NCBI GenBank assembly: GCA_045659845.1
Contig: JAZRCQ010000294.1
Location: 1 to 36,433, forward strand
Length of the DNA stretch: 36,433 bases
Direction: 5' to 3'
From: Eubacteriales bacterium
GTDB taxonomy: Bacteria > Bacillota > Clostridia > Oscillospirales > CAG-272
Part shown: piece by piece, positions 2,052 through 34,185 of the stretch
How the letters are laid out: each line of letters starts with the position of its first letter
How positions within the stretch are numbered: position 1 is the stretch's first letter
Notes under the pieces: generated by a model
Told to the model about the DNA's origin: nothing
Seen by the model: the letters and a program-made list of their open reading frames with translations, nothing else
The model's database searches: none
Position numbers and translations under genes: made by a program

Positions 2052-2483
2052 TCAGAGCTTTTTAATATCGTCCTCGGAGATCATTCTGAAGCCTGCGGCC
2101 GTCAAGGCAGCCTCAGCCACTGCATTGTCCTCCACTCGCAGCACCACGTAGGCATGCCGCTCGGTGCGCGCCATGAAGGCATACATATATTCCACGTTGA
2201 TATCCTCCCGATCCAGCACGGAAAGAGCCTCGGTGAGCTTGCCGGGAGCATCCCCGATCTTCACGCCCACCACGTCGATCACCTTGATCAGATAGCCCTT
2301 TTTCGCAAGCACGGCCTCAGCGGTCTCCGGATCATTCACGATCAGGCGCAGGATTCCGAAATCCTGCGTTTCCGCAATGGAAAGTGCTCTCAGGTTCACT
2401 CCACAATCGGAAAGTGCCTCGGTAACCGATGCCACCGTTCCCTTTTTGTTCTGAACGAACACCGTTAATTGCTTGATTGCCAT
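2052..2483 (-). CDS. ACT-domain protein (tandem ACT, small-ligand/amino-acid-binding regulatory fold)
   Basis: Start moved to MAIKQLTVFVQNKKGTVASV (cat 2481-2483), with an AGGAGA RBS at complement 2491-2496. Two ACT-like repeats are present (LTVFVQNKKGTVA... and VVGVKIGDAPGKL...). The longer ORF-track N-terminus overlaps paaK and has no RBS. Confidence 0.8.
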   Translation of the reverse strand: MAIKQLTVFVQNKKGTVASVTEALSDCGVNLRALSIAETQDFGILRLIVNDPETAEAVLAKKGYLIKVIDVVGVKIGDAPGKLTEALSVLDREDINVEYMYAFMARTERHAYVVLRVEDNAVAEAALTAAGFRMISEDDIKKL

Positions 2484-2499
2484 AGCTGCCTCTCCTTTC

Positions 2500-3810
2500 T
2501 TAAATGAGCTTACGCTTATCGACCACGCGAACGGCCTTGCCCTCGCTTCTTGCAATGCTCTTGGGCGGAACGAGATGCACCAGCGGATTGATGCCCAGCA
2601 TGGTTTTGATCGCATTGGCAAGAGATTTTTCCATCGCCATGATCTCGCTCACCTTATCCGTGAAGCGTTCTGCCGTCATCTCCACGTTCACGTCGAAGGT
2701 ATCGTTGTTCTTCACGCGGTCCACCACGATCTGATAATTGGGCTCATAGCCCTCCTTGAGCAGCACTGTTTCGATCTGGCTGGGGAACACGTTCACGCCG
2801 CGGATGATCAGCATATCGTCGGTTCTGCCCATGGGCTTGGCCATCTTGATCAGCGTGCGGCCGCAGGAGCACTTCTTGCGGGAGAGCACACAAATGTCGC
2901 GGGTGCGATAGCGGAGCAGGGGGAACGCCTCCTTATCCAAGGAGGTGAACACCAGCTCACCCTTGCTTCCCTCGGGAAGCACCTCACCCGTTTCGGGATC
3001 AATGATCTCGGCAAAGAAATGATCCCCGTTGATATGCATGCCGCTCTGCTCACTGCATTCAAAGGCAACGCCGGGGCCGGTGGTCTCGGTGAGGCCGTAG
3101 ATATCGTAGGCCTTGATGCCCAGCAATTTTTCGATGCTTTGGCGCATCTCCTCCGTCCACCGCTCAGCGCAGAAGATGCCTGCCTTCAGCGGCATATCCT
3201 CCGGCCGGTAGCCCTGCTCCTTCAGGCTCTCGCCCAGATAGGCGGCGTAGGAGGGGGTGCAGCAAAGAATGGTGGCATTCAGATCCATCATGAACTGGAT
3301 CTGGCGCTCGGTGTTGCCCGAGGAAAGCGGCAGCGTGAGGCATCCAACCTTATGGGAGCCGCCGTTCAGGCCGGGGCCGCCGGTGAACAGGCCGTAGCCG
3401 TAGGCCACCTGGCAAACGTCCTTCTTCGAGCCGCCAACGGCAACGATCGCGCGGGCGCAGCAATCCTCCCAAAGATCGAGATCCTTCTGCGTGTAGAAGG
3501 CAACCACGCGGCGGCCGGTGGTTCCGGAGGTGGACTGAATGCGAACGCAATCCTCCAGCGGCTTCGCCAACAGACCGTAGGGATAGGCGTCGCGAAGATC
3601 GGCCTTGGAAAGGAACGGAAGCTTGTGGAGATCGTCGATGCTCTGAATATCCTCCGGTCGAACGCCTTTCTGATCCATCAGATCCCGATAGTAGGCAACG
3701 TTTTCATAAACGTGCCTGACCTGCTTGATCAGCTTCTCCGATTGGAGCTTTTTCATCTCCTCACGGGGCATGGTTTCAATTTCCTTTTGGAAATAGCGTT
3801 GCTGTTCCAT
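2500..3810 (-). CDS. paaK: Phenylacetate--CoA ligase (PaaK-family adenylate-forming enzyme)
   Basis: 436 aa. N-terminal MPREEMKKLQSEKLIKQVRHVYENVAYYRDLM...LPFLSKADLRD, the SSGTTGR P-loop (QSTSGTTGRRV), YGLTE and RYRTRD motifs are hallmarks of the PaaK/CoF420-ligase-like subfamily. Confidence 0.85.
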   Translation of the reverse strand: MEQQRYFQKEIETMPREEMKKLQSEKLIKQVRHVYENVAYYRDLMDQKGVRPEDIQSIDDLHKLPFLSKADLRDAYPYGLLAKPLEDCVRIQSTSGTTGRRVVAFYTQKDLDLWEDCCARAIVAVGGSKKDVCQVAYGYGLFTGGPGLNGGSHKVGCLTLPLSSGNTERQIQFMMDLNATILCCTPSYAAYLGESLKEQGYRPEDMPLKAGIFCAERWTEEMRQSIEKLLGIKAYDIYGLTETTGPGVAFECSEQSGMHINGDHFFAEIIDPETGEVLPEGSKGELVFTSLDKEAFPLLRYRTRDICVLSRKKCSCGRTLIKMAKPMGRTDDMLIIRGVNVFPSQIETVLLKEGYEPNYQIVVDRVKNNDTFDVNVEMTAERFTDKVSEIMAMEKSLANAIKTMLGINPLVHLVPPKSIARSEGKAVRVVDKRKLI

Positions 3811-3865
3811 TGTTAAACACCCTTTCTGATTCTGAGCTTTTCACTCGATTTTGGCTCGGAGTGAG

Positions 3866-4164
3866 AAAACAAAAACGTCCTCCGCATTCCGACAGGGCAA
3901 GGCCCCAAGAACACAGAGGACGAGAAATATTCTTTCCCGTGGTACCACCTCAGTTCGCCGCCACCTCACGGTTGCGACCTTTTCAGGTACTGACATACCA
4001 TAGTTCTATGACGGGAACTCCCGTTGCATCCTACTACGGATCTCTCCGATTCAGCGCACTGCTAACAGAATGAATTCGAGAAGGACGCCCCCTCTGTCTC
4101 GCACCGCCCGACAGCTCTCTCCAGGTTCTTTCCAGCCTACTGGTTTCTGCTCTCCGCATTTGAT
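3866..4164 (-). promoter_or_regulatory. T-box riboswitch, specifier UUC (Phe), leader of paaK-ACT
   Basis: All elements read on the minus strand:
- S-turn AGUA at complement 4138-4141;
- AG bulge AGAGAG at complement 4115-4120;
- distal loop GGUGCGA at complement 4099-4105;
- specifier loop GAA-UUC-A at complement 4071-4077, followed by helix UUCUG pairing with CAGAA;
- T-box motif GAGGUGGUACCACGGG at complement 3937-3952, with antiterminator A1 GAGG/CCUC and A2 ACGGGAAA/UUUCUCGU;
- competing terminator CGUCCUC...GAGGACG + UUUUU at complement 3871-3924. Confidence 0.85.
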
Positions 4165-4170
4165 ATTCGC

Positions 4171-4199
4171 ATTATACCACCTTTATGCGCATCTGTCAA
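4171..4199 (-). promoter_or_regulatory. Sigma-70-type promoter TTGACA-N17-TATAAT for the Phe T-box/paaK operon
   Basis: Minus strand cTTGACAgatgcgcataaaggtggTATAATg. The -35 box is at complement 4194-4199 and the -10 box at complement 4171-4176. Confidence 0.65.
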
Positions 4200-4301: not shown

Positions 4302-4330
4302 TTGACAAAAAGAGGAAGATATGATATAAT
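4302..4330 (+). promoter_or_regulatory. Sigma-70-type promoter TTGACA-N17-TATAAT for the Leu T-box operon, divergent from the paaK promoter
   Basis: ttgaca (4302-4307), 17-nt spacer ending in tga, tataat (4325-4330). Confidence 0.65.
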
Positions 4331-4336
4331 GCTAAA

Positions 4337-4615
4337 TCATAAACGCGATGATGCGGAATAGTATGCAAAAGGATTCGCCTTCAGAGAATTGCCGGCCGGT
4401 GCGAGGCATGGGAAGAGCTTTGCAGAACTCACCGTTGAGCGGTTGCCATGAAATTGCAGAGTAGTGGCAAACGGGAGCTCCCGTCACAGAGTCAAGATGT
4501 GTCAGCATCGAAGGTGCATCCCGCATCGGGATGAAGAAGAGTGGTACCGCGGAAACACGAGGATCGGCGTTTTCGTCTCTTTGAAGCAACAAAGAGATGG
4601 AAGCGTGTTTTTGTT
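4337..4615 (+). promoter_or_regulatory. T-box riboswitch, specifier CUC (Leu)
   Basis: - K-turn GAUGA at 4347-4351;
- S-turn AGUA at 4360-4363;
- AG bulge AGAGA at 4383-4387;
- distal loop GGUGCGA at 4398-4404;
- specifier loop GAA-CUC-A at 4425-4431, flanked by helix UGCAAAAG/CUUUGCA above and GCGG/CCGU below;
- T-box motif AGAGUGGUACCGCGG at 4538-4552;
- terminator stem 4568-4605 (core UCUCUUUG/CAAAGAGA) followed by UUUUU at 4608-4612. Confidence 0.88.
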
Positions 4616-4660
4616 GCATCACCGGTCCCGAATTTCCAAGCTTGAAAGGAGCATTCCATC

Positions 4661-6049
4661 ATGAGACAGATCAACGTAGCCGACATCACCCTCAAAAAGC
4701 TTTCGGAGGATCGCGCAGTTTCCCTGCTGTTCCGCGAGAAATCCGCTATTGCCAATTGCGCCGACCGTCTCGGTGCAAACTGCATCGAGCTGCCCCCCGT
4801 GAAGAACGTGCGCGAGGATTCTATCATCTATAAGACCATTGCGAAAAATGTTCGGAGCGCCGCGCTGGCCATTCCCGTTGGCTACACCGCCGACGACGTT
4901 GCCGTTGCATGGGAATGCATCCGCGAGGCCAAGGCTCCCCGTCTGCAGGTGGAGCTTCCCGTTTCCACCATTCAAATGGAATACACCTATCACGTGAAGC
5001 AATCCAAAATGCTGGAAAAGATCGGCGAGCTGGTTGCCGCCGCAAAAGCTCTCTGCTCCGACGTGGAGTTCTCCGCGCTGGATGCCACCAGAGCCGACGA
5101 GGAATTTCTGATCGCCGCCGTGCGGGAGGCCGAGGCGAAGGGCGCATCCGTCATCACGATCTGTGATAACGCCGGTGCATCCACTCCCGATCAGATCGGC
5201 GAGCTCACTCAAAAGGTGAAGGCGACCGTGTCCGTTCCCGTGTACGTTCAAGTGTCCGATCGCGTGAGCATGGCAGTTGCATCCGCGTTTTCCGCCATTG
5301 CCTGCGGTGCCGACGGACTCAAGAGCGCCATGGCGGGCAAGGATGCTCTGCTGACGGGGGCACTCTCCGACGCCATGAATGCCTGCGGCGCGCGGCTCGA
5401 CGCGGCAATCAGCCTGAACAGCACCAATATCCACGCCAGCATCGAGGATCTGAAGGCAGGCATCCGCCATGAGGCCGATGAGACCGAGTCCTCTGAAAGC
5501 GAGCAGAAGCGGATCCTGCTGGATTCCGATTCCACTCTGGCGCAGGTGGCCGACACGGCCGCTCTTCTGGGCTACGAGCTTTCGGATTCCGATATTGGAA
5601 ACGTTTATAAGGCGCTGTCGCAGGTCTGTGCGCGCAAGGGTGCCGTTGGAGCCAAGGAGCTGGAGGCTCTGATCGCAAGCTCCGCCATGCAGGCTCCCTC
5701 CACCTATCATTTTGAAACCTACACCACCACCAGCAGCAATATCTCCAGCGCAATGACGCAGATCGTTCTGAAGAACAACAATGAATGCATCTGCGGCGTC
5801 AGCGCAGGCGACGGCCCCATCGATTCCGCCTTCCGCGCCATCGAGCAATGTGTGGGCCATCACTATGAGCTGGACGATTATCAGGTGCAGTCGGTCACCG
5901 AGGGCAAGGAGGCTCTGGGCTCCGCCTTGGTGAAGCTTCGCTACAACGGCAGGCTCTATTCCGGAAACGGCACCTCCACCGATATCATCGCCGCCAGCAT
6001 CCGCGCCTATATCAACGCACTCAACAAGATCGTTTTTGAGGAGGCATGA
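4661..6049 (+). CDS. 2-isopropylmalate synthase-like protein with degenerate catalytic motifs and an intact LeuA C-terminal regulatory domain (probable pseudoenzyme)
   Basis: 462 aa, with AAAGGAG RBS at 4645-4651. The HMGL-like TIM-barrel layout is recognisable (FSALDATRAD, ITICDNAGAS). The DTTLRDGEQ motif reads ADITLKKLSED, and the HxH metal site reads VQVSDRVSMAVAS. The C-terminal GDGPIDSAFRAIEQ...VTEGKEALGSALVKLRYNGRLYSGNGTSTDIIAASIRAYINALNK matches the LeuA allosteric/dimerisation domain. Confidence 0.7.
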   Translation: MRQINVADITLKKLSEDRAVSLLFREKSAIANCADRLGANCIELPPVKNVREDSIIYKTIAKNVRSAALAIPVGYTADDVAVAWECIREAKAPRLQVELPVSTIQMEYTYHVKQSKMLEKIGELVAAAKALCSDVEFSALDATRADEEFLIAAVREAEAKGASVITICDNAGASTPDQIGELTQKVKATVSVPVYVQVSDRVSMAVASAFSAIACGADGLKSAMAGKDALLTGALSDAMNACGARLDAAISLNSTNIHASIEDLKAGIRHEADETESSESEQKRILLDSDSTLAQVADTAALLGYELSDSDIGNVYKALSQVCARKGAVGAKELEALIASSAMQAPSTYHFETYTTTSSNISSAMTQIVLKNNNECICGVSAGDGPIDSAFRAIEQCVGHHYELDDYQVQSVTEGKEALGSALVKLRYNGRLYSGNGTSTDIIAASIRAYINALNKIVFEEA

Positions 6050-6055
6050 TCCAGC

Positions 6056-8515
6056 ATGAAAATCGTTTTTTCCACTAAAAACGTGAGCCGAGCCTCCTTT
6101 CTCGACACCTGCCGCATTGCTCACGACTACGGCTTCGAGGGCTTTGAGATCTATGATGCCGTTGGCGAACGGAGCGTTCACTCCGACAGCGTTCTGAGAC
6201 GCGACAAAATGGCCGATGCCAAAAGAAAGCTCGTCAACCGAAATCTGGCCGTTTCCGCGCTTCGGATGCCCCATCCCGTGGAGCATGCGGAAACCACAGC
6301 GGAGCTGATCCAAAAATATGTGGATATGGCCGCCACGGCAGGCATTGAAAACGTGATCGTTCGTGCAGAAGCCCCCGTTTCCTTTGCGCTTCTGGATGAA
6401 AAAATGGCTGCGGCGATCAAGCGGGCGGAGCAAGCAGGAGTTGGCATCCTGCTGGAAACCGTTGGCAGTCTGGCGAGAACCGAAAACGTGATCGCTATCA
6501 TCAATCACTTCGCCTCTGCCGCCATCGGAGCCTCCTGGAACGTTCGCGGCACCTATTTCGATGCGGGCGAAACCGCTGAGGTGACCATCAAAAATCTGGG
6601 CGCCTACATCCGCTACGTTCGTCTCGGAGACATGAAGGACGGCAAGACCGTTCTGATCGGCGAGGGCGATCTGGACGTGAAAAAGCTCCTCAACGCCCTT
6701 TCCTCTCTCAACTACGAGGGCTTCATCTGCGCCGCATGGAACGAGGAGATCAACGATGCCGACATCGTGTTGACTCATTTTACCAATTACATTTCTGCGC
6801 TGGGACGTGAAAAAAAGTCCTTTGATCACGCATACTATAATCGGGCGAAAACCGGCACCTTCGTATGGAAAAAATACGATGTGATCGAGGCCACCTTCGC
6901 CGACGTGCTGGACACCATGGCCGAACGGTATCCCGATCAGTATGCCTTCAAGTACCCCACGCTGGACTACACCCGAACCTACGAGCAGTTCCGCCGCGAC
7001 GTGGACGAATGCGCCGCCGCCCTCATTTCCTTGGGCGTGAAGGCCGGTGATCACGTGGCGATCTGGGCCACCAACGTGCCCCAATGGTTCATCACCTTCT
7101 GGGCCACCACCAAGATCGGCGCCGTGTTGGTTACCGTGAACACCGCCTATAAGATCCACGAGATCGAATATCTGCTCAAGCAATCCGACACCCACACCCT
7201 CGTGATGGTGGAATATTGCAAGGATATCAACTATAAGGAGATCATCGAGCAGCTCTGTCCCGAGCTGAAGGCGCTCCATCCGGGCGATCCCCTCTATTCC
7301 AAGAATCTTCCCTTCCTGCGCAACGTTGTGACCGTTGGCTTCGGCATGGACGGTTGTCTCACCTGGGAGCAAATGCTCTCCCGCTCTGCCCTCGTGCCCC
7401 GTGAGGAGGTTCGCCGCCGCGCTTCCCTTGTGAAGCCCGACGACGTTTGCAATATGCAATACACCTCGGGAACCACCGGCTTCCCCAAGGGCGTGATGCT
7501 CACCCATCGCAACATCGTGAACAACGGAAAGACCATCGGCGACAGAATGGATCTCTCCACGGCCGATCGCATGATGATCCAAGTGCCCATGTTCCATTGC
7601 TTCGGCATGGTGCTTTCCATGACCTCCATGATGACTCACGGCGGCACGCTCTGCCCCATTCCCTATTTCTCGCCCAAATCCTCTCTTGCCTGCGTGAACG
7701 ATGAGCGCATCACCTGCTTCAACGGTGTGCCCACCATGTTCATTGCTATGTTCAATCATCCCGATTTTGCCAAGACCGACTTTTCCTATATGAGAACCGG
7801 AATCATGGCAGGAGCAAACTGCCCCGCCGATCTGATGCGCCGCGCATCCGAGGAAATGAATATGCGGGAGATCATCTCCGTGTACGGCCAGACCGAGGCC
7901 TCCCCCGGATGCACCATGGGCGAGGTGAACGAGGATCTGGACCATCGCGTGGAAACCGTTGGCAGTGCCTTCCCCGGCGTGGAATGCAAGATCATTGATC
8001 CGGAAACCGGCGACGAGCTTCCCGACGGCGAAAGCGGCGAGTTCGTGGCACGCGGCTTCAACATCATGAAGGGCTACTACAAAATGCCTGAGGCCACGGC
8101 GCAGGCCATCGATGCCAACGGCTGGCTCCACTCGGGCGACATCTGCATGAGAACCCCCGACGGCTACTATAAGGTGACGGGCCGCCTCAAGGATATGATC
8201 ATCCGCGGCGGAGAAAATCTCTATCCTCGCGAAATCGAGGAATTCTACCTCACAAATCCCAAGATCCGCGACGTTCAGGTGGTTGGCGTGCCCGACGAGA
8301 CCTACGGCGAGGAATGCTGTGCATGGGTGATCCTGCACAAGGGAGAAACCGCCGATGAAAAGGAAATGAAGGCCTTCGGTGCCGCATCCATTGCCAAGCA
8401 CAAGGTGCCCAGATACTTCCTCTTCGTGAATGAATTCCCCATGAACGCCGCCGGAAAGATCCTGAAATACAAGATGCGTGAGGAATCCGCTGAAAAGCTG
8501 GGATTGAAAAAATAA
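6056..8515 (+). CDS. Fusion protein: N-terminal xylose-isomerase-like TIM barrel (AP endonuclease 2 family) + C-terminal AMP-forming acyl-CoA synthetase
   Basis: 819 aa, with a GAGGAGG RBS. Residues ~1-250 (GFEGFEIY..., GILLETVG, YIRYVRLGD, GEGDLD, GFICAAWN) resemble sugar-phosphate isomerase/epimerase-type TIM barrels. Residues ~270-819 carry the ANL motifs YTSGTTGFPKGV, YGQTE, GWLHSGD, GRLKDMIIRGGENLYP and the terminal GKILK. Confidence 0.78.
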   Translation: MKIVFSTKNVSRASFLDTCRIAHDYGFEGFEIYDAVGERSVHSDSVLRRDKMADAKRKLVNRNLAVSALRMPHPVEHAETTAELIQKYVDMAATAGIENVIVRAEAPVSFALLDEKMAAAIKRAEQAGVGILLETVGSLARTENVIAIINHFASAAIGASWNVRGTYFDAGETAEVTIKNLGAYIRYVRLGDMKDGKTVLIGEGDLDVKKLLNALSSLNYEGFICAAWNEEINDADIVLTHFTNYISALGREKKSFDHAYYNRAKTGTFVWKKYDVIEATFADVLDTMAERYPDQYAFKYPTLDYTRTYEQFRRDVDECAAALISLGVKAGDHVAIWATNVPQWFITFWATTKIGAVLVTVNTAYKIHEIEYLLKQSDTHTLVMVEYCKDINYKEIIEQLCPELKALHPGDPLYSKNLPFLRNVVTVGFGMDGCLTWEQMLSRSALVPREEVRRRASLVKPDDVCNMQYTSGTTGFPKGVMLTHRNIVNNGKTIGDRMDLSTADRMMIQVPMFHCFGMVLSMTSMMTHGGTLCPIPYFSPKSSLACVNDERITCFNGVPTMFIAMFNHPDFAKTDFSYMRTGIMAGANCPADLMRRASEEMNMREIISVYGQTEASPGCTMGEVNEDLDHRVETVGSAFPGVECKIIDPETGDELPDGESGEFVARGFNIMKGYYKMPEATAQAIDANGWLHSGDICMRTPDGYYKVTGRLKDMIIRGGENLYPREIEEFYLTNPKIRDVQVVGVPDETYGEECCAWVILHKGETADEKEMKAFGAASIAKHKVPRYFLFVNEFPMNAAGKILKYKMREESAEKLGLKK

Positions 8516-8538
8516 CGATCACAATCTGTGGAGGCGCA

Positions 8539-8970
8539 ATGTATTTTGACGATCTTCAAATCGGAATGACGGTGGACATTGATTCCACCGTCATCGAAAA
8601 AGAAAAAATGATGGAGTTTGCCCGCGTTTACGATCCGATACCGCTGCATACCGATGAGGAATATGCTCGGTCTACCCCCTTCGGCGATCTGATCGCCCCC
8701 GGCATGATGTCGTTTATGTCCCTGTGGGCAAAGTATCTGGAGGTCGATTTCTTCGGCAAGGAGCTTTTGGCCGGAAAATCCACCAGGATCGAATGGCTCA
8801 AGCCCGTTTATGCCAACGACAGCTTATCGGGCAGGGCCACCATCACGGCATTGACGAAGAGAAATGACAAAAACGGTTTGGCCGAAATCTCCATCTATGC
8901 CTACAATCAAAAGGGAGAGCCGGTGCTGACAAACGTTACGGAGGCGATCGTAAAGTGCAAGCCGAGCTGA
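8539..8970 (+). CDS. MaoC-like (R)-specific enoyl-CoA hydratase/dehydratase, hotdog fold
   Basis: 143 aa with a GGAGG RBS. FARVYDPIPLHTDEEYARSTPFGDLIAPGMM matches the MaoC dehydratase motif (D-x-N/P-P-x-H-x-D ... G-x-I-A-x-G). Confidence 0.75.
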   Translation: MYFDDLQIGMTVDIDSTVIEKEKMMEFARVYDPIPLHTDEEYARSTPFGDLIAPGMMSFMSLWAKYLEVDFFGKELLAGKSTRIEWLKPVYANDSLSGRATITALTKRNDKNGLAEISIYAYNQKGEPVLTNVTEAIVKCKPS

Positions 8971-9025: not shown

Positions 9026-9054
9026 TTGACAAATCCGGTTTTCCGTGCTATAAT
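9026..9054 (+). promoter_or_regulatory. Sigma-70-type promoter TTGACA-N17-TATAAT for the third T-box
   Basis: ttgaca at 9026-9031, 17-nt spacer, tataat at 9049-9054. Confidence 0.65.
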
Positions 9055-9060
9055 TTTTTA

Positions 9061-9348
9061 AAATTTGAATATCAAAAAAGACTGTGATGAAGAGGATCGG
9101 AAAGCAATGCTTCCAGAGAGTTGTCGGGCGGTGCGAGACAATAACAGAGACTTCCATATGATCTATCACTTCTGAGTCGAAGGACCGAACCCGGGGCATT
9201 CCCCTGTCAGTAGACTCCTTCCGTATTGCTGCGTCAAAGCAAAGGGCTTGTTGGAGTCCGGAAAGTGACGGAATTGAATTCCGTAATTTGAGTGGTACCG
9301 CGGGTGAATAGCTCGTCTCAAGGGTTTTCTTTTGAGACGAGTTTTTTG
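9061..9348 (+). promoter_or_regulatory. T-box riboswitch, specifier probably AUC (Ile); assignment uncertain
   Basis: - K-turn GUGAUGA at 9084-9090;
- AG bulge AGAGAG at 9115-9120;
- distal loop GGUGCGA at 9130-9136 (the block gtcgggcggtgcgagaca is identical to the Phe T-box);
- T-box motif GAGUGGUACCGCGGG at 9290-9304, with A1 UUGAG/CUCAA;
- terminator CUCGUCUCA...UGAGACGAG + UUUUUU at 9311-9348.
The 3' side of Stem I reads ...AUG AUC U AUC A CUUC UGAGUC. AUC-A (9165-9168) sits directly before the 4-bp helix (GAAG/CUUC) and the K-turn, the same layout as in the other two leaders. No clean AGUA/GAA S-turn is visible. Confidence 0.8.
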
Positions 9349-9413: not shown

Positions 9414-11714
9414 ATGGATTACAGCTTGAAAGAGGTTGCAAGAAGAATTAGGGATCTACGCGAGGCCAAGGGCTACTCCCCTGCCGAGCTTGCAAGACTC
9501 ACCGGCGTTTCCCTTGAGGATTACACGCTTTTGGAGGAAGGAAACACCGACTTCAGCTTCACCTTCATTTATAAATGCGCAAAGGCCTGCGGCGTTGAGG
9601 TGGTTGACATTCTGGAGGGAAGCAGCACCACCCTCACCTCCTTCGCCATCACCCGCAAGGGCGAAGGCCTCAAGATCCTGAAGCAGCACGGCGTGGAATA
9701 CAACAATCTCGCACCCAAGTTCAAGGAGAAGCTCGCCGAGCCCTTCCTCGTGAAATTCCCTTACATCCCCGAGGAGCAAAACGTGCCGATGAAGCTCAAC
9801 TCCCACAACGGTCAGGAATTCGACGTGATCGTGAAGGGCTCGCTGAAGGTGCAGATCGGAAGCCACGTGGACGTGCTTCATGAGGGTGATTCCATTTTCT
9901 ATAACAGCTTGATCCCCCACGGCATGATCGCCGCAAGCGAGGGCGGTTGCGAATTCCACGCGGTGGTTCTCAATCCGCAGAACGGTCAGGTGAGCGAGGA
10001 ATATCCCGAGGCGCCCTACGTTGCGGCGAGAGTGGCCGAAAAGGCAGAGGAAACCGCCACGGTTGCCGATCAGTTCGTAACCTCCACCTACGATGAAAAC
10101 GGCGTTTTCAACGGCATTTCCTTCAAAAACGACGATCAATTCAACTTCGCCTTCGACTGCGTGGACGCCATTGCGAAAAAGAATCCCGATAAGCTTGCAA
10201 TGCTTTGGGTTGGCAACGATAAGAGCGACCGTCGCTTCACCTTTGCCGACATGAAGAAATATTCTGCCAAGACAGCAAACTATTTCGAGTCTCTCGGCAT
10301 CAAAAAGGGCGACACCGTGATGCTGGTGCTGAAGCGTCATTACCAATTCTGGTTCTGCATGCTGGCACTGCATAAGATCGGCGCCATCGCGATCCCCGCC
10401 ACCAATCAGCTGGTGGAGCATGACTTCGCTTACAGATATCAGGCCGCCAAGGTGAAGGCGATCGTTTGCACCGCCGATGGCGACGTTTCCTCCGAGGCCG
10501 AAAAGGCCGCCGCTCAGTTCCCCGGCCTGCTCAAGGTGCTTGTTGGCGGCAAGAAAGAAGGCTGGAATGATTTCAACGTGGAAATGGAACGCTTCAGCAC
10601 CCATTATTACCGCACCGAGCAAACGCCCTGCGGCAATGATCCCATGCTGATGCTCTTCACCTCGGGCACCACGGGCTATCCCCGCATCGCCACCCACTCC
10701 TATAAATATGCGCTGGGCCACTACCCCACCGCCAAGCATTGGCACAACGTCAAAGCCAACGGCCTGCACTTCACCATCTCCGATACGGGATGGGGCAAGG
10801 CGCTCTGGGGCAAGCTCTACGGTCAGTGGCTCTGCGAGGCCGGGATCTTCACCTACGATTTCGATCGCTTCCGCTCCGAGGATATTCTGCCCATGTTCAA
10901 GAAATACGGCATCACCACCTTCTGCGCTCCTCCCACCATGTATCGCTTCTTCATCAAGGAGGATCTCTCCAAATATGATCTTTCCTCCATTGAATATGCC
11001 ACCACGGCAGGCGAGGCGCTGAACCCCGAGGTGTTCAACCAGTTCAAGAAGGCCACCGGACTCACCATCATGGAGGGCTTCGGGCAAACCGAAACCACCC
11101 TTTCCATTGCAAACTTCGTTGGCTCCACGCCCAAGATCGGATCGATGGGTAAGCCCAGCCCGCTCTACGACGTGGTGGTGCTGGATCCCGACGGCAACGA
11201 ATGCAAGACCGGCGACACGGGCGAGATCTGCATCCGCACAAAGGATCATATTCCCTGCGGTCTCTTCATCGGCTACTATCTGGATGAGGAAAAAACGCGC
11301 GACGCCTGGTACGACGGCTATTATCACACCGGCGATCAGGCCACCATGGACGAGGACGGCTATCTCTGGTACGTCGGCCGCATCGACGATGTGATCAAGT
11401 CCTCCGGCTACCGCATCGGGCCCTTTGAGATCGAAAGCGTGATCATGGAGCTTCCCTACGTGCTGGAATGCGCCATCACGCCCGTTCCCGACGAGGTGCG
11501 CGGTCAGATCGTGAAGGCCACCATCGTGCTGACAAAGGGCACCGTTGGCACCGACGCGCTGAAAAAGGAGATTCAGGAGTACGTGAAAACGCACACCGCT
11601 CCCTATAAGTACCCCCGCATCGTTGAGTTTGTGGAGGAGCTTCCCAAGACGATCAGCGGAAAGGTGCGCCGCGTGGAGATCCGCAAAAACGATCTGGAAA
11701 AAATGAAAAAATAA
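9414..11714 (+). CDS. Fusion protein: XRE-type HTH + cupin domain fused to a medium-chain (ACSM/MACS-like) AMP-forming acyl-CoA synthetase
   Basis: 766 aa. Residues 1-~65 form an HTH_3 domain (LREAKGYSPAELARLTGVSLEDYTLLEEG). Residues ~90-190 form a cupin (NSHNGQEFDVIVKGSLKVQIG...GDSIFYNSLIPHGM). Residues ~230-766 carry FTSGTTGYPR, TISDTGWGKALWGKLY, EGFGQTE, YHTGDQA, GRIDDVIKSSGYRIGPFEIE and the terminal SGKVRR, typical of medium/short-chain acyl-CoA synthetases. Confidence 0.8.
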   Translation: MDYSLKEVARRIRDLREAKGYSPAELARLTGVSLEDYTLLEEGNTDFSFTFIYKCAKACGVEVVDILEGSSTTLTSFAITRKGEGLKILKQHGVEYNNLAPKFKEKLAEPFLVKFPYIPEEQNVPMKLNSHNGQEFDVIVKGSLKVQIGSHVDVLHEGDSIFYNSLIPHGMIAASEGGCEFHAVVLNPQNGQVSEEYPEAPYVAARVAEKAEETATVADQFVTSTYDENGVFNGISFKNDDQFNFAFDCVDAIAKKNPDKLAMLWVGNDKSDRRFTFADMKKYSAKTANYFESLGIKKGDTVMLVLKRHYQFWFCMLALHKIGAIAIPATNQLVEHDFAYRYQAAKVKAIVCTADGDVSSEAEKAAAQFPGLLKVLVGGKKEGWNDFNVEMERFSTHYYRTEQTPCGNDPMLMLFTSGTTGYPRIATHSYKYALGHYPTAKHWHNVKANGLHFTISDTGWGKALWGKLYGQWLCEAGIFTYDFDRFRSEDILPMFKKYGITTFCAPPTMYRFFIKEDLSKYDLSSIEYATTAGEALNPEVFNQFKKATGLTIMEGFGQTETTLSIANFVGSTPKIGSMGKPSPLYDVVVLDPDGNECKTGDTGEICIRTKDHIPCGLFIGYYLDEEKTRDAWYDGYYHTGDQATMDEDGYLWYVGRIDDVIKSSGYRIGPFEIESVIMELPYVLECAITPVPDEVRGQIVKATIVLTKGTVGTDALKKEIQEYVKTHTAPYKYPRIVEFVEELPKTISGKVRRVEIRKNDLEKMKK

Positions 11715-12637: not shown

Positions 12638-14065
12638 TCAAAAATTATTATTTTTTGATTTGTTAAGTTGATTTTTGATTATTTCATACGCCACTTTATC
12701 GTCTTTAAATTTGTAAAGTTTGAATTTTGACCAAGTTGTTTGAATAATTATCCTTTTATTGTATTCAACTGCAAGGATATTTTGATAATCACAATTAAAC
12801 GAAATATTGTATCCATCGTGCTTTAATCCATTCTCATATATTTCAATGCATTTAGAATCGCTATATCCGGATTTCTTATCCCTTGTATAACCTATCAGAG
12901 ATGAAATCAATACAAGTAATGATACACACAAAGAAGCTCCGAGACCCATGATTAAATACACAATCCATTTCATTTGTGGATTTAAAAGTTGGATTATTAC
13001 CCATATTCCATTATTAAACAATAATATTGAGATCAAAATTTGAATCATCAAACGCCACTGATGAATTGTGCTATATTTATGCTTATATATCAAGTCACCG
13101 TAATCATGCTCATACTCATCAAAATCATCATATATAGGATATTGATCGAAATGAAGACCATATTCTTTACATCTATTTTGAAATAGCAACACTTTGTCTG
13201 CTAATTTGTTTTGACGTTTTCTGTTATTTACATATTTACAAAAACTATAAACGATATCATTGCTGAAAATGAGACAACGTTGCATTATATCATCATTCTC
13301 TATATACCCTAACACATTTCTTTGCTTGAAATCTAAAATATCATTAATAGAATTATTAATTTCAATCCAACCGGAATTGGTTTTGATTGTAAGATTATTT
13401 TCAGAAACGCTATATTCAAATTTTTTGATATCGATTTTTCTCTCAAATATAGACTTAAACTCTACATGTCTTGCTATTAATATTTTTTCTTCTGCACCTG
13501 ACATAGGGGCAAAAGAAAATTCTATACAGCCATCAGCTATACGCATATCACAATGAGAAAATATTTGCCCAAACTCCAAAGAGCTTTTGACGATACCTTT
13601 ACATTTTAAAACTATGAAGGAGCCCCAAGATGTATCCAAAAGTATCTCAAGTGTATTATTCTCTTCGTTTATTCCTAAAACATATCCATCGTGGAATGAA
13701 CCCGAATTTAAATCCAATGCATCAAAATCGGATGTTTTCTCAATTTTTTTAAATTCGCAAAGGCTCTCCGCGCGCAACATCCCCTTTGCTTCATCGAGCA
13801 TTTTTGAGGTGTATTGCTTTCTCTTGATTGTTCTAAAAATATTCTTATCGTTCCAATATGATTTAAACTCGCTATTATTAATAGAAAAATCATCAGTATC
13901 AAAATCTATAAAAAGAACGGTATATCTGTTATCTCTACAAACATCAACAACAATCAACTCGGCAAAAGAGCTGTCAAAAACAACAGCTTTGCTCGGATAT
14001 TTCATAGATACGGCAAAAACAGGCGAATGGTATACACAGCCGTTAGACAGTATTTTTGCGAGCAT
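12638..14065 (-). CDS. Hypothetical protein, AT-rich orphan; soluble N-terminal region, TM hairpin, then a small C-terminal PH-like (bPH/DUF304-type) module
   Basis: 475-aa uninterrupted ORF in very AT-rich DNA, Asn/Lys/Ile/Phe-rich. AAGGAGAAAA RBS. It has its own TTGAAA-N17-TATAAT promoter. Two hydrophobic helices (WRLMIQILISILLFNNGIWVIIQLL, WIVYLIMGLGASLCVSLLVLISSLIGY) are followed by ~80 aa. I recognise no family for the first ~330 aa. Confidence 0.6.
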   Translation of the reverse strand: MLAKILSNGCVYHSPVFAVSMKYPSKAVVFDSSFAELIVVDVCRDNRYTVLFIDFDTDDFSINNSEFKSYWNDKNIFRTIKRKQYTSKMLDEAKGMLRAESLCEFKKIEKTSDFDALDLNSGSFHDGYVLGINEENNTLEILLDTSWGSFIVLKCKGIVKSSLEFGQIFSHCDMRIADGCIEFSFAPMSGAEEKILIARHVEFKSIFERKIDIKKFEYSVSENNLTIKTNSGWIEINNSINDILDFKQRNVLGYIENDDIMQRCLIFSNDIVYSFCKYVNNRKRQNKLADKVLLFQNRCKEYGLHFDQYPIYDDFDEYEHDYGDLIYKHKYSTIHQWRLMIQILISILLFNNGIWVIIQLLNPQMKWIVYLIMGLGASLCVSLLVLISSLIGYTRDKKSGYSDSKCIEIYENGLKHDGYNISFNCDYQNILAVEYNKRIIIQTTWSKFKLYKFKDDKVAYEIIKNQLNKSKNNNF

Positions 14066-14339: not shown

Positions 14340-14424
14340 TGGTGCGGAAAACGGGACTTGAACCCGTACGGTGTGAACCACACGCCCCTCAAACGTGCGC
14401 GTCTGCCAGTTCCGCCACTTCCGC
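14340..14424 (-). tRNA. tRNA-Leu (anticodon GAG), class II with long variable arm, CCA encoded
   Basis: Reverse complement reads GCGGAAGTGGCGGAACTGGCAGACGCGCACGTTTGAGGGGCGTGTGGTTCACACCGTACGGGTTCAAGTCCCGTTTTCCGCACCA.
- Acceptor stem GCGGAAG/UUUCCGC;
- anticodon stem CACGU/GCGUG with loop UU-GAG-GG;
- T arm ACGGG-UUCAAGU-CCCGU;
- discriminator A. Confidence 0.92.
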
Positions 14425-24611: not shown

Positions 24612-25106
24612 ATGAAGATCAGACCTGCAACCGAGGGCGATCTGCCCCGCCTTTTGGAGATCTACGACGATGCGCGCCGATTCATGCGCGAAAACGGCAA
24701 TTTGGAGCAATGGTCGGGGGGCTACCCCAATGAAGCCGTGCTTCGGGAGGACCTTTCCTTGAACCGCCTTTTTATTTGTGAGGAGGACGGCGAACCGCTC
24801 GGCGTGTTCTGCTTCTTTATCGGCGAGGATCCCACCTATCTGCGGATCTATGAGGGACAATGGCTCAACGATCGTCCCTACGGCGTGATCCATCGCATTG
24901 CCGTGGCCCAGCATCGCCGCGGCGTGGCCGCCTTCTGCTATGACTATTGCTTCTCCGTCTGCCCCAATCTGAAGATCGACACCCACCGCGACAACCTCCC
25001 CATGCAGCGATCTCTGAGCAAAAACGGCTTCCTTCCCTGCGGGATCATCTATCTGGCGTCCGGGGATGAGCGCATCGCCTACCAAAAGGAGGATCTTCTG
25101 CGATGA
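24612..25106 (+). CDS. GNAT-family N-acetyltransferase
   Basis: Start set at MKIRPATEGDLPRLLEIYDD (ATG 24612, GGAGGA RBS at 24601-24606). The acetyl-CoA-binding core reads VIHRIAVAQHRRGVAAF ... NLPMQRSLSKNGF. The upstream part of the 358-aa ORF-track entry is antisense to the DUF308 gene. Confidence 0.8.
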   Translation: MKIRPATEGDLPRLLEIYDDARRFMRENGNLEQWSGGYPNEAVLREDLSLNRLFICEEDGEPLGVFCFFIGEDPTYLRIYEGQWLNDRPYGVIHRIAVAQHRRGVAAFCYDYCFSVCPNLKIDTHRDNLPMQRSLSKNGFLPCGIIYLASGDERIAYQKEDLLR

Positions 25107-27682
25107 GATTCCACACACTTTGCTCCCTGCTCCTGCTCCTTTCCCTTCTGCTCTCTGCCTGCTCTGCACCGCAGGGTGAGCCGCCCGCAGAGTCGGCGGG
25201 CACCACCGAGGAGGTGGCCGTCCCCGCGCCTACCGTGACCGTGGCGCAGGATAAAAAATCGCTCTTCGAGATCATTGTGGACACCTCCAATGCTCCCGCC
25301 AAGCGATTTGCAAACGTTCTGCAAACCGCCGTGTTTCAAAGGTGCGGTGCCTTCATTCCCATCCGCGATTACTCCTCCTCAACCTCCGGCTTTTCGGGCA
25401 GGATCTACGTCGGCGACCCCACGGGCCTGCTCGACGCCGACTGCAAGGCTCAGATCTCTCCCGGCTCCTACGGTGTTTTCTCCCAACAAGAAAGAATCGA
25501 TTTCTATGCCGCCGATGCGGCAGGCTTTGTGGCCATGGAGCAATATCTGCAGGAATCGCTCTTCTCCGAGCTTACAGAAACCGGCTGGAGCGTCCCCGAG
25601 GAAAAGCGCATCTCCTCCCTGCCATCGGAGTCCTTCTCCATGCGAACCGATGCGGAAACCGTTTATTCCATCGTTCACGACGGATCCTTCGAGGGAATGT
25701 TTTTTGCCACGCTCCTGCAATCCTACCTCAGCACGACCTACGGCATCGCCTCAAGAACTGTTTTCGATGGCGTGAGATATGAAAACGAGATCCTGCTGGG
25801 CAACGTGAAGCGCGAGCAAAGCGAGGCCGTTTCCCGCTACTCCGCAGGCAAGGATGCCTTCTTCTCCGGCGTTTTGAACGGTGCCTACGTGATCTACGGA
25901 AAATCCAATCTTGCCCTTGCCCACGGCTGCACCCGTCTTTTGGACCTTATCGGATCCGGGTCGGAAAGCACCGCGGTCGAGATCCGCACAGAGGAGCTTT
26001 CCTGCGGCGATCTCGCCCTCTATCCGCGCAATGAGGAATATGCCGCTCTCATCAAGCGTGCCAACGATTTTTCCAAAACCTATTGCAGTTATCAGGATCG
26101 CCAGCTGGCCTCCGCCTCCAATAGCGTGAAGGCGGATCAGGCCTTGGTCGAAGCGCTCACAGAGCGCATGGGCAACAGCATGGCACTCTATCTCGGCAGC
26201 TCCTCCGCGCTTCATAAGGGCTATATCGTGAAGCTGGATCGCGCGGACTATGAGCGCGTTCTCAAGATCACTCCCGAGGGGCATCTGCTGGCTCCTGCCG
26301 ACTATCTCGGCGAATATTTCCAAGCCTCCCTTCCCACCGATTCGGAGGGCTACGTCGATCTCACCGCCTATTGCGCAAGCTCCGACAGCTTCTCCCTCAC
26401 CTATTTCTCCTCCACGCAGATCGCCGTGATCACCCCCGCGGGAGAGGCTCCCTTCGATCAGCTCTCGCTGAAGGTTGGGAACTACACCAATGCGGAATAC
26501 GTTCTGCGCATGAAGCAGTTCTTCACCAATTCCCGCATGCCCGAGCCCGATTGCAACGTGGAGCAGACCCGCTTGGAGATCTTCTCCACCCCCGAGGAAA
26601 ACAACGCCTCCTATTTCTACGACTACGAATGGTATAACGACGAAAAATGGAAGGGCGCGCAGGTACTCCACTCCCCTGCCATTCTCGCAAGACGGGAAAA
26701 CGGCAGGAACGTCCTTTACGCCATCGCAACAGTGGAGACCAAGGGGATCCCCTACGAAACCCAGATGGTTCGCAGTGAGGACGAGGGGAAGACCTGGACA
26801 CACCTCTGCGCCGAAAAATCTCTCTATTTCGCCTCTCTCTTTGAGCAAGGCGGAAGGATCTACATGATCGGAAACTACGGCGGCGCCGTGATGATCGTTC
26901 GCTATGATCCCACCACAGGGCTCAAAACCAGCGCTCGCTTCAGCGATCTCAAGATCGGCGGCGGTGCCCCCAACACCGTCCTCCATGCAAACGGACGGAT
27001 CTATAAGGCCTATAACGATGCCGTGATCAGCGCGCCGGAAGGCTCCGATCTGCTCGAACGCGCTGCCTGGACAGTCTCCAACAACTGCCAGCAAATGATC
27101 ACCCGTCAGCTCTTCCAAAGCATCACGGGAAAGGCCGCGAAGGATTCGGAATTCGACATTGAGGAGGGCAACCCCGTGCAGACGCCGGACGGGCAGATCT
27201 ACGTGATGTATCGTCTGAATGCCGGCACGCACTACGGCTACGTAGCACTTTTCAAGCTTTCCTCCGACGGCACCACCATGACGCTGGATGAACGAACAGG
27301 CGGCATCATGAATTTCCCCTACACGAAATCCAAGTTTTCGCTCGTTTATGAAGAATCCCTCGGCCTCTATATTTCCATTGTTTCGCTGGCAACCATGAAC
27401 AACACCAACCAGCGGAACGTGCTGGGCTTGGTGGTTTCCGAGGATCTCTACGATTGGGAGGTGGTCTCCGTTTTGCTCACCGATCGACAGATGCTCAACG
27501 ACACCTACTCCATGTGGGCACACGGCTTCCAATACGTGGATTTTGTGATCTCTGACAACAAGCTTTATTTCGTGATCCGCGAGGCCTTCGGCGACAGCTA
27601 TTGCTACCATGAGGCCAACGCTAGCACGCTCTACACGCTGGAGAATCTCTCCGAGTTCATTGCCGCCCGACGGACAAACTGA
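25103..27682 (+). CDS. Large secreted lipoprotein with one BNR/Asp-box motif (sialidase-fold-like putative glycoside hydrolase)
   Basis: 859 aa. Signal peptide plus lipobox MRFHTLCSLLLLLSLLLSAC. One clear Asp-box, SEDEGKTW (VRSEDEGKTWTHL), lies in a C-terminal region with a beta-propeller-like repeat texture. The ATG overlaps the GNAT stop (ATGA at 25103-25106). Confidence 0.5.
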   Translation: MRFHTLCSLLLLLSLLLSACSAPQGEPPAESAGTTEEVAVPAPTVTVAQDKKSLFEIIVDTSNAPAKRFANVLQTAVFQRCGAFIPIRDYSSSTSGFSGRIYVGDPTGLLDADCKAQISPGSYGVFSQQERIDFYAADAAGFVAMEQYLQESLFSELTETGWSVPEEKRISSLPSESFSMRTDAETVYSIVHDGSFEGMFFATLLQSYLSTTYGIASRTVFDGVRYENEILLGNVKREQSEAVSRYSAGKDAFFSGVLNGAYVIYGKSNLALAHGCTRLLDLIGSGSESTAVEIRTEELSCGDLALYPRNEEYAALIKRANDFSKTYCSYQDRQLASASNSVKADQALVEALTERMGNSMALYLGSSSALHKGYIVKLDRADYERVLKITPEGHLLAPADYLGEYFQASLPTDSEGYVDLTAYCASSDSFSLTYFSSTQIAVITPAGEAPFDQLSLKVGNYTNAEYVLRMKQFFTNSRMPEPDCNVEQTRLEIFSTPEENNASYFYDYEWYNDEKWKGAQVLHSPAILARRENGRNVLYAIATVETKGIPYETQMVRSEDEGKTWTHLCAEKSLYFASLFEQGGRIYMIGNYGGAVMIVRYDPTTGLKTSARFSDLKIGGGAPNTVLHANGRIYKAYNDAVISAPEGSDLLERAAWTVSNNCQQMITRQLFQSITGKAAKDSEFDIEEGNPVQTPDGQIYVMYRLNAGTHYGYVALFKLSSDGTTMTLDERTGGIMNFPYTKSKFSLVYEESLGLYISIVSLATMNNTNQRNVLGLVVSEDLYDWEVVSVLLTDRQMLNDTYSMWAHGFQYVDFVISDNKLYFVIREAFGDSYCYHEANASTLYTLENLSEFIAARRTN

Positions 27683-31394: not shown

Positions 31395-31943
31395 TCACAG
31401 CCTTACGACTGTGTAGCCATGCCTCATTTCCGGAAGGATGCGCTCCGTGAGATCCTCCCGACGGATCCGCAGGCTGGACGTGTTGATGCAGGGATGCATG
31501 CCGATCCACTCCGATTCCAGCACGTCGCCGTCGATCAGAAGGCGCACTCTGCCCTCGGTGTCATTCATCAACCCCAGCACGCTGGCCGATCCGGGCGTGC
31601 ATCCAAGCAGCTGCTCCATATCCTCGGGGGAGGCAAAGGAGAGGCGCGAGGATTGGATCTGCGCGGAGAGATCCTTTGTGTGAAACACCTTATCTCCCCG
31701 AAGCATCAGCAGATAAAAGGCGGTTTTCTGACGGTTGCAAAGCAAGAGATTCTTGCAAATGGCCGCCTCCAGCACGCGATCGATCTCCCGACAAACCTCC
31801 ATCGTCATAGCAGGCGCATGGTCGATCCGCTCATATTCGATCCCCAGCTCCTCCAGAAGCGCATAGCATTTCTGCTCTCTGATCAGTCGCTCCGACAGCT
31901 CCTTCGGCGCGCCCTGCTCTCTTTTCAGCTCCTGCCCGCTCAT
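31395..31943 (-). CDS. YbaK/ProX-type aminoacyl-tRNA trans-editing (deacylase) domain protein
   Basis: Start set at MSGQELK (cat 31941-31943), forming an ATGA overlap with the metA stop (31940-31942). ...[29 protein letters not shown]....[24 protein letters not shown] is typical of prolyl-tRNA-synthetase-associated editing domains. Confidence 0.7.
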
Positions 31944-32857: not shown

Positions 32858-32872
32858 TGCTTCAACTCCAAA

Positions 32873-34156: not shown

Positions 34157-34185
34157 GTTCTTCTCTCCTTTATTTCGGTTGTTCT

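Follow-up and report, generated by a model that had tools for sequence, protein, structure and literature searches.

A leucine T-box operon in Oscillospirales as a candidate isovalerate-activation module for leucine synthesis

The 36,433-nucleotide contig JAZRCQ010000294.1, from a Eubacteriales bacterium of the Oscillospirales, was analysed over its whole length and is called the window below. At positions 4302 to 8970 it carries an operon under the control of a leucine T-box, a leader RNA that reads the charging state of a tRNA. Its three genes encode a protein related to 2-isopropylmalate synthase (hereafter the LeuA-like protein), a fusion of a triosephosphate isomerase (TIM) barrel with an acyl-CoA synthetase (TIM::ACS) and a MaoC-type protein. 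We propose that this operon is probably a leucine-starvation-induced module that activates isovalerate for the synthesis of leucine by reductive carboxylation. The features on which this proposal rests are the following.

4302..4330, forward strand: sigma-70 type, TG-extended promoter, TTGACA-17-TATAAT, 12/12 consensus
4339..4583, forward strand: Leu-specific T-box leader (RF00230, 124.1 bits, E = 2.7e-27)
4428..4430, forward strand: specifier codon CUC in the context GAA-CUC-A, in the Stem I specifier loop (assigned from the sequence and an Infernal alignment)
4540..4551, forward strand: conserved T-box sequence AGUGGUACCGCG, whose UGGU bulge would pair with the tRNA 3' ACCA
4567..4616, forward strand: intrinsic terminator with a 17-bp stem and a U-tract (hairpin 4567-4606; -23.4 kcal/mol, z = -4.9)
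4661..6049, forward strand: LeuA-like protein, 462 aa, HMGL-like barrel and LeuA_dimer domain; putative non-catalytic leucine-sensing or ligand-binding partner
6056..6850, forward strand: xylose-isomerase-like TIM barrel, N-terminal in the fusion (AP_endonuc_2, PF01261, 53.8 bits)
6896..8515, forward strand: acyl-CoA synthetase (ANL) domain of the fusion, AMP-binding and AMP-binding_C; candidate isovalerate-CoA ligase
8539..8970, forward strand: MaoC-type single hotdog protein, 143 aa (MaoC_dehydratas/FAS1_DH_region); lineage-variable third gene
14340..14424, reverse strand: tRNA-Leu(GAG), with an anticodon exactly complementary to CUC and the 3' end ACCA

In a covariance-model scan with Rfam, the match of the leader to RF00230 covered the full model (1-219) and lay above the gathering threshold of 93 bits. 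Within 4425-4431 the CUC codon is presented in the Stem I specifier loop and followed by the purine A, a placement that agrees with the Infernal alignments of nine related leaders. The 5' arm of the terminator overlaps the 3' arm of the antiterminator, and the two structures are mutually exclusive. Judged from its sequence, the leader is thus a complete and strong T-box, in line with the specifier and antiterminator/terminator described in a first-pass annotation of this DNA, and the operon is Leu-specific; that it acts by tRNA-dependent antitermination is expected from the T-box family.

In the mechanism that we favour, uncharged tRNA-Leu(GAG) would pair with the CUC codon and the UGGU bulge, stabilise the antiterminator and allow read-through at 4567-4606. 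The synthetase domain of the fusion would then form isovaleryl-CoA from isovalerate, ATP and CoA. An enzyme of the 2-oxoisovalerate:ferredoxin oxidoreductase (VOR) or pyruvate:ferredoxin oxidoreductase (PFOR) type would convert isovaleryl-CoA to 2-oxoisocaproate, from which a branched-chain aminotransferase would make leucine. The two partners, the LeuA-like protein and the TIM barrel of the fusion, would most likely bind ligands without catalysis and regulate the synthetase, with leucine being sensed by the LeuA allosteric domain and isovalerate perhaps bound by the barrel of the LeuA-like protein. MaoC in the window, and an Amidohydro_2 homologue or a protein with ACT and metallo-beta-lactamase domains (ACT-MBL) in relatives, would be variable accessory enzymes.

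The fusion gene (6056-8515, forward strand, 819 aa) begins 6 nt after the LeuA-like gene and ends 23 nt before the MaoC gene. All the domains claimed for the three genes in the first-pass annotation were recovered with Pfam. The synthetase domain matched PF00501 with 321.6 bits and PF13193 with 58.2 bits, and its core motifs are intact, namely YTSGTTGFPKG, YGQTE, the hinge-region GRLKDMIIRGGENLYP and AAGK with the catalytic Lys. That isovalerate is its substrate is suggested by the genes around it, and first of all by two further T-box units that flank the Leu operon on either side. These were absent from the first-pass annotation, and a default scan missed them because they score below the Rfam gathering threshold.

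3913..4199, reverse strand: divergent promoter (4199->4171) and Phe T-box leader (4163->3913; RF00230, 87.1 bits, E = 1.4e-19)
3810->2500, reverse strand: phenylacetate-CoA ligase PaaK, under the Phe T-box
~2483->2052, reverse strand: ACT-domain protein, under the same T-box
9026..9343, forward strand: promoter (9026-9054), Ile T-box leader (9075-9323) and terminator (9310-9343)
9414..11714, forward strand: HTH-cupin::acyl-CoA synthetase (HTH-cupin::ACS), MbcS-like, 766 aa; candidate 2-methylbutyrate-CoA ligase

The specifier of the Phe leader is UUC (4074->4072, reverse strand) in the context GAA-UUC-A, and its divergent promoter is a perfect match to the consensus. The leaders of PaaK genes have a lower stem of 5 bp, and the Infernal alignment gives UUC as their specifier. 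PaaK itself scored 514 bits with TIGR02155, below the cut-off of 646. This unit suggests a salvage of phenylacetate to phenylalanine. The Ile leader (RF00230, 86.9 bits, E = 1.7e-19) has the specifier AUC at 9165-9167 and is preceded by a perfect promoter. The protein that it controls is made of three parts (HTH_3, cupin and synthetase), and its best family is MbcS (NF047394, 447 bits, below the cut-off of 850). In each of the three adjacent units the acid expected for the ligase would be one CO2 smaller than the 2-oxoacid of the cognate amino acid. The candidate ligand-binding module differs from ligase to ligase: it is an ACT domain for PaaK, an HTH-cupin for the Ile/Val ligases and a LeuA allosteric domain for the Leu ligase.

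To collect relatives, one genome per species was scanned with an alignment of four TIM sequences, and the best 80 of 439 loci (designated by L numbers) were analysed. T-boxes in front of HTH-cupin::ACS genes, counted in these loci and in the window, had the specifier AUC (Ile) in 46 cases and GUA (Val) in 32. The Val-type unit, which is absent from the window, precedes a second HTH-cupin::ACS paralogue (leaders in L006 at 5012-5255 and in L011 at 4827-5075, both on the reverse strand, and in about 30 other loci); this paralogue is presumably an isobutyrate ligase. At least 30 of the 80 loci, as far as their flanks reach, have a gene for a VOR alpha homologue after the ligase. The Ile unit of L076 consists, in this order, of the T-box, the ligase, a ParA/CbiA-like P-loop protein, VOR alpha, beta and gamma, and IlvE, the VorB model scoring 554 bits (cut-off 399) and the IlvE model 509 bits (cut-off 307). 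Read from its genes, this unit is the whole predicted route from acid to acyl-CoA, 2-oxoacid and amino acid in a single tRNA-controlled operon. A ParA/CbiA/NUBPL-like P-loop protein stands between ligase and VOR alpha in 32 loci (for instance L076 15193-15858, forward strand, and L006 1794-2465, reverse strand); it perhaps carries Fe-S clusters to the oxidoreductase.

The Leu module itself is widely kept. The TIM domains of the best 80 loci are 78-85% identical, and all these loci belong to metagenome-assembled genomes (MAGs) of uncultured Acutalibacteraceae, Oscillospiraceae or 'Clostridia'; where sample names state an origin, it is the gut of ruminants or other animals. Within this set identity is 93-96% for the synthetase domain, about 80% for the TIM domain and about 75% for the LeuA-like protein. 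Wherever upstream DNA is available, in about 70 species, the LeuA-like gene directly precedes TIM::ACS, with gaps of 1-42 nt in the loci examined. The pairing holds down to about 29% identity with the window for the TIM domain of the fusion and 45% for the LeuA-like protein. Seventy Leu leaders were collected; two are cut by contig ends, and the other 68, in which Stem I is intact, all have the specifier CUC. These leaders fall into at least five sequence types, GAA-CUC-A, ACCU-CUC-C, GGU-CUC-G, UCCU-CUC-G and AGU-CUC-A. No leuBCD or ilv genes were found among the window's open reading frames (ORFs) that were scanned, as the first-pass annotation had stated, nor among the neighbouring genes scanned around the module in L006, L076, L051, L074, L082 and L086-L093; in the remaining loci the screen covered the genes of the window only.

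A large second clade was reached by searching with a distant LeuA-like partner. Its LeuA-like proteins (466-472 aa) are 43-46% identical to that of the window and its fusions 57%, and the two genes are adjacent at every place looked at. The T-box specifiers found there are CUG in L087 and CUC in L092, both for Leu. This synonymous switch argues for selection on the identity of the amino acid, and the Leu specifier, whose conservation in relatives had been proposed as a check, is kept in all readable leaders of the first clade and in these two of the second. Downstream of the module, L089, L090, L091 and L093 have an Amidohydro_2 gene and a single-chain oxidoreductase of the PFOR type at short distance. 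In L092 the PFOR gene follows the module directly, with no Amidohydro_2 gene and with different flanking genes. Altogether PFOR follows the module in 5/5 second-clade loci and Amidohydro_2 in 4/5, and a flavodoxin gene is also present in L091 and L093; the gaps are 9-75 nt, and at least two different flanking contexts are represented. A 946-aa Fe-S flavoprotein, a relative of GltD and of NADPH-dependent oxidoreductases, also lies beside the module (L089 3308-6148; L091 and L093 at about 4950-7800); it could regenerate a low-potential donor for carboxylation.

We considered whether the Leu ligase might salvage isovalerate to prime iso-odd fatty acids when leucine breakdown fails, and not to make leucine. 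Isovaleryl-CoA would suit both fates, the Leu operon of the window holds neither an oxidoreductase nor an aminotransferase gene, and MbcS, the closest characterised relative of the Ile/Val ligases, serves fatty acids in Staphylococcus aureus (PMC10026030). Yet the combination of ligase, VOR and IlvE in one T-box unit makes sense only for amino-acid synthesis, and fatty-acid synthesis gives no reason for placing PaaK under a Phe T-box. Moreover, the second clade couples the module to PFOR and flavodoxin, the low-potential donor needed for carboxylation. We therefore regard the fatty-acid explanation as unlikely and keep leucine synthesis as the preferred function of the operon.

The LeuA-like protein has the two domains of a 2-isopropylmalate synthase, with Pfam scores of 96.7 bits for the HMGL-like barrel (PF00682) and 108.5 bits for LeuA_dimer (PF08502, E = 3e-31), but with LeuA equivalogs it reaches 238.5 bits at best, far below the cut-off of 532. 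The catalytic motifs are degenerate, as had been noticed in the first-pass annotation. At the first site the protein reads DITLKKLSED in place of DTTLRDGEQ: the metal-binding Asp is kept (D8), the Arg is replaced by K12 in the window's clade, and GEQ has become LSE. At the HxH(D/N)D site it reads QVSDR, with Q197 and S199 at the positions of the two His, and both of these metal ligands are gone from the LeuA-like proteins of every clade compared. Residues D8, K12, K13, E43, S199 and D200 of the barrel are invariant. The most conserved part is the regulatory domain, with 94-99% column conservation; the ratio of non-synonymous to synonymous substitution (dN/dS) was about 0.03 in this domain and about 0.09 in the barrel, values estimated, like the others given here, with synonymous sites near saturation. 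A structural model of the protein superposed on the N-terminal domain of LeuA from Listeria monocytogenes (3EWB) with a template-modelling (TM) score of 0.91 and a root-mean-square deviation of 1.7 Å, and it also aligned with full-length LeuA from Mycobacterium tuberculosis, including the leucine-bound form (3HPS, 3FIG). A search of PDB sequences with the regulatory domain alone gave no homologue, hence no comparison of leucine-pocket residues. Homologues are labelled 'hypothetical protein' at NCBI and isopropylmalate, homocitrate or citramalate synthases at JGI. An annotation of the gene as leuA would be wrong, which matters for the prediction of auxotrophies from MAGs.

The TIM barrel of the fusion is degenerate as well, a point absent from the first-pass annotation. 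Its model (pLDDT, the per-residue confidence score, 92) resembles UlaE and ketose 3-epimerases with TM scores of 0.72-0.79. Of the metal-binding tetrad Glu-Asp-His-Glu only E134 is kept; the three others are replaced by N162, R189 and A227, and a further replacement is R164. In terms of motifs, ET.G, WD.HH, HVH.KD and SLEW of the wider family have become ETVG, WNVRG, YVRLGD and CAAW in the window's clade. Arg takes two of the replaced positions, the replacements are invariant across 66 species, and E134, N162, R164, R189 and D192 are invariant in the clade. The TIM domains of the second clade are intermediate, with the tetrad partly kept. The dN/dS ratio was about 0.03 in the synthetase domain and 0.07-0.09 in the two barrels, which places the degenerate barrels under purifying selection.

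One member of the TIM::ACS family, P0234, has intact ligands and a different genomic context, with no LeuA-like gene or T-box in the 269 nt of upstream sequence on hand; a link to leucine for the whole TIM::ACS family was ruled out by this case. A distant fusion, P0239 (L082 1175-3505, forward strand), has degenerate synthetase motifs (P-loop TYRFDGDVCA, YGEKE, no GRLKD motif) and is still paired with a LeuA-like gene; going by these motifs, the whole P0239 fusion may be a pseudoenzyme.

Both barrels lack the metal chemistry of their families and are nonetheless maintained, so that the simplest role for them would be to bind a ligand or to regulate. Isovalerate is the deoxo analogue of 2-oxoisovalerate, the substrate of LeuA, and one may speculate that a protein binding it therefore has no need for the metal that chelates a 2-oxo acid. 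A more specific scenario is that a second copy of LeuA lost its catalytic function and was taken up as a dedicated leucine-binding sensor, which together with the disabled TIM barrel gates the activation of isovalerate. We consider this scenario possible but more doubtful than not. If it were true, leucine would control the salvage twice, through tRNA charging at the RNA level and through a pseudoenzyme at the protein level.

The third gene of the operon varies. The MaoC protein of the window (PF01575, 47.8 bits; PF13452, 49 bits) reads YDPIPLH, in which an Asp and a His are retained, whereas the G-D-x-N-P consensus of the hydratase motif is not. MaoC directly follows the synthetase in 3 of the 60 loci that have enough downstream DNA, the window included. 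In other loci it lies upstream of the LeuA-like gene, mostly together with the 478-aa ACT-MBL protein. MaoC as a core step of the pathway was ruled out by this distribution. The usual third gene, found in 43 of the 60 loci and likewise absent from the first-pass annotation, is an Amidohydro_2 homologue with intact HxH...H...D ligands, whose nearest solved relatives are the uncharacterised 3IRS and, weakly, decarboxylases of the ACMSD type. In some species the ACT-MBL protein is encoded beside MaoC within the operon under the Leu T-box; it stands in place of Amidohydro_2 save in L074, which has both. Its genes are at the following positions.

L074 1563-2999: ACT and metallo-beta-lactamase gene
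L005 7119-8546: the same
L062 12895-14328: the same
L057 8629-10056: the same
L001 12513-13946: the same

In L051 the Leu (CUC) T-box is followed first by a DUF554 membrane protein (7357-8121, forward strand) and then by MaoC, the LeuA-like gene and TIM::ACS; the DUF554 protein is a candidate transporter of isovalerate or leucine.

These accessory genes bear on the idea of a new catalytic pathway, in which the barrels together with MaoC, Amidohydro_2 and ACT-MBL would turn another precursor into isovaleryl-CoA or 2-oxoisocaproate. Candidate precursors would be 3-hydroxyisovalerate, 3-methylcrotonate and 3-hydroxy-3-methylglutarate, the last as in the myxobacterial Aib route. In support of this idea, the replaced active-site residues do not vary and purifying selection acts on both barrels, the Amidohydro_2 protein has kept its metal ligands, is distantly related to ACMSD-type decarboxylases and follows the synthetase in most loci, and the MaoC protein has an Asp and a His at the putative positions of the hydratase motif. 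On the other hand, both His ligands of the DRE-TIM family are lost in every clade, as are three of the four in the xylose-isomerase fold; MaoC is uncommon and does not keep a fixed place; the operon has no conserved reductase or dehydrogenase; and the accessory genes swap between species, unlike an obligatory pathway. We hold such a pathway to be improbable. The first-pass annotation had envisaged CoA-thioester chemistry on a C5 branched acid that feeds 2-oxoisocaproate and then leucine. With isovalerate as the acid this proposal fits the Phe and Ile T-box ligases, the ligase-VOR-IlvE operons and the association with PFOR and flavodoxin; its variants based on MaoC, with 3-methylcrotonate or 3-hydroxyisovalerate as the acid, were not supported, as MaoC follows the synthetase in 3 of the 60 loci only and is accompanied by no reductase. 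That the operon is an ordinary T-box-leuA unit, with a functional 2-isopropylmalate synthase and passengers downstream, would agree with the LeuA fold, the regulatory domain and the common position of Leu T-boxes before leuA or ilv-leu operons, but it is very hard to reconcile with the score of 238 bits against a cut-off of 532, the loss of HxH and GEQ, the absence of leuBCD nearby and the strict coupling to TIM::ACS in every locus examined.

Several observations weigh against isovalerate activation for leucine synthesis, our preferred explanation. The best family of the synthetase is PRK12583, a generic one, with 668 bits and thus below the cut-off of 832, and a PDB search with this domain returned generic ANL relatives, none of which signals a specificity. 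There is no 2-oxoacid:ferredoxin oxidoreductase (OFOR) or aminotransferase gene in the Leu operon, and the nearest OFOR genes of the window are about 26 kb away. Amidohydro_2, which is common and apparently active, has no role in the simple three-step route. In the second clade, a T-box was not detected in three contexts (L089/L090, L091 and L093), and by its score (TIGR02176, 1698 bits) the PFOR looks like a standard pyruvate:ferredoxin oxidoreductase, so that its adjacency could reflect central metabolism. Finally, the replaced residues of both barrels are invariant, and catalysis of some reaction by them is therefore still possible.

The remaining features of the window that touch this subject lie at its far end.

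36433->35948, reverse strand: OFOR beta, partial (C-terminal)
35947->35414, reverse strand: OFOR gamma
35127->34186, reverse strand: Amidohydro_2 homologue, right after OFOR beta/gamma and a weak T-box-like leader

In the weak T-box-like leader (35095-35293, reverse strand; 42 bits, E = 3.6e-8), Stem I is shortened and the GGUGACACCGCG motif is atypical. The genes behind it (31395-35127, reverse strand) encode the Amidohydro_2 homologue, a pyridoxal-phosphate enzyme of the Cys/Met type, a homoserine O-acyltransferase and a protein with a YbaK-type tRNA-editing domain. Opposite the Leu operon runs a 1260-aa ORF (4619-8401, reverse strand), which was rejected as a gene, no comparable ORF being present in L006. 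Long stop-free antisense ORFs also lie over the ligase genes at 9456-11594 (reverse strand) and 2473-3816 (forward strand), and such ORFs look like by-products of codon usage, not genes. Two large ORFs have no Pfam or NCBIfam family, one of 475 aa (12638-14065, reverse strand), with a sub-threshold PIN match only, and one of 859 aa (25103-27682, forward strand).

It has long been established, over decades, that branched-chain volatile fatty acids benefit bacteria of the rumen and hindgut or are even required by them. Which genes channel the acids into amino-acid synthesis, and how these genes are regulated, has so far been poorly defined. The present analysis offers a testable set, in which T-boxes for Phe, Leu, Ile and Val each control an acid-CoA ligase of their own, with links to VOR or PFOR and to IlvE. 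Hundreds of uncultured Oscillospirales species from ruminants carry the module, which therefore bears on models of cross-feeding and on the supplementation of feed with branched-chain volatile fatty acids. If the proposed role is confirmed, the pseudo-LeuA and the remodelled TIM barrel are a new case of enzymes turned regulators.

T-box riboswitches, ANL ligases and the reductive-carboxylation route are already known; the genes described here, their control by T-boxes, the conserved pseudo-LeuA and the remodelled TIM partner appear to be undescribed. In the literature searched we found no account of T-box control of acid activation for four amino acids, of the Leu module made of pseudo-LeuA and a TIM::ligase fusion, or of the recurrent Amidohydro_2 partner, each of which may have been mentioned earlier in comparative T-box surveys. 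The ilv-leu leader of Bacillus subtilis is a Leu T-box with a CUC specifier, and the leader studied here resembles it and other Leu T-boxes in RNA architecture, specifier codon and terminator/antiterminator logic, by which uncharged tRNA-Leu switches on genes that restore leucine. It differs from the known examples in what it controls, an acid-CoA ligase with pseudoenzyme partners and not de novo biosynthesis, an aminoacyl-tRNA synthetase or a transporter, and in its clustering with Phe and Ile T-boxes (in relatives also Val), each of which stands on an acid-CoA ligase.

HisZ, a catalytically dead paralogue of HisRS, gives HisG its feedback control by histidine. By analogy only, the LeuA-like protein is likewise a paralogue from an amino-acid pathway that has lost catalysis, has kept its ligand-binding parts and is coupled to a putative target; the fold (LeuA) and the putative target (an ANL ligase) are different, and the interaction of the LeuA-like protein is a predicted one. 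With LeuA proper it shares the two-part architecture, but in the loci scanned it is never beside leuBCD and always beside TIM::ACS. MbcS of S. aureus is an ATP-dependent short-chain acyl-CoA synthetase that salvages external branched acids for fatty-acid synthesis, and the purified enzyme activates 2-methylbutyrate and isobutyrate, isovalerate being a poor substrate (PMC10026030). The ligases under Ile and Val T-boxes have MbcS as their best family match, whereas the Leu synthetase belongs to another ANL subgroup (PRK12583-like) and has an N-terminal TIM barrel; since MbcS is poor on isovalerate, leucine would indeed need a different type of ligase.

Rumen bacteria and methanogens convert isovalerate to Leu, isobutyrate to Val, 2-methylbutyrate to Ile and phenylacetate to Phe. 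The carboxylation of acids to amino acids in the rumen is said to go back to the classical work of Allison and Bryant, and Methanococcus maripaludis reportedly carboxylates acids reductively by the indolepyruvate oxidoreductase (IOR) pathway. The first-pass annotation had held that the gene set matches no known leucine pathway; this is not supported, as rumen microbes are known to make leucine by carboxylating isovalerate and aminating the product (PMC7356843). The classical work on this route was physiological and isotopic, and our literature searches gave no account of the acid-activation genes, their T-box control or the LeuA-like and TIM partners. The route and the present module share the proposed chemistry and the setting in the ruminant gut, and the ligase-VOR-IlvE operons of the relatives encode all three steps.

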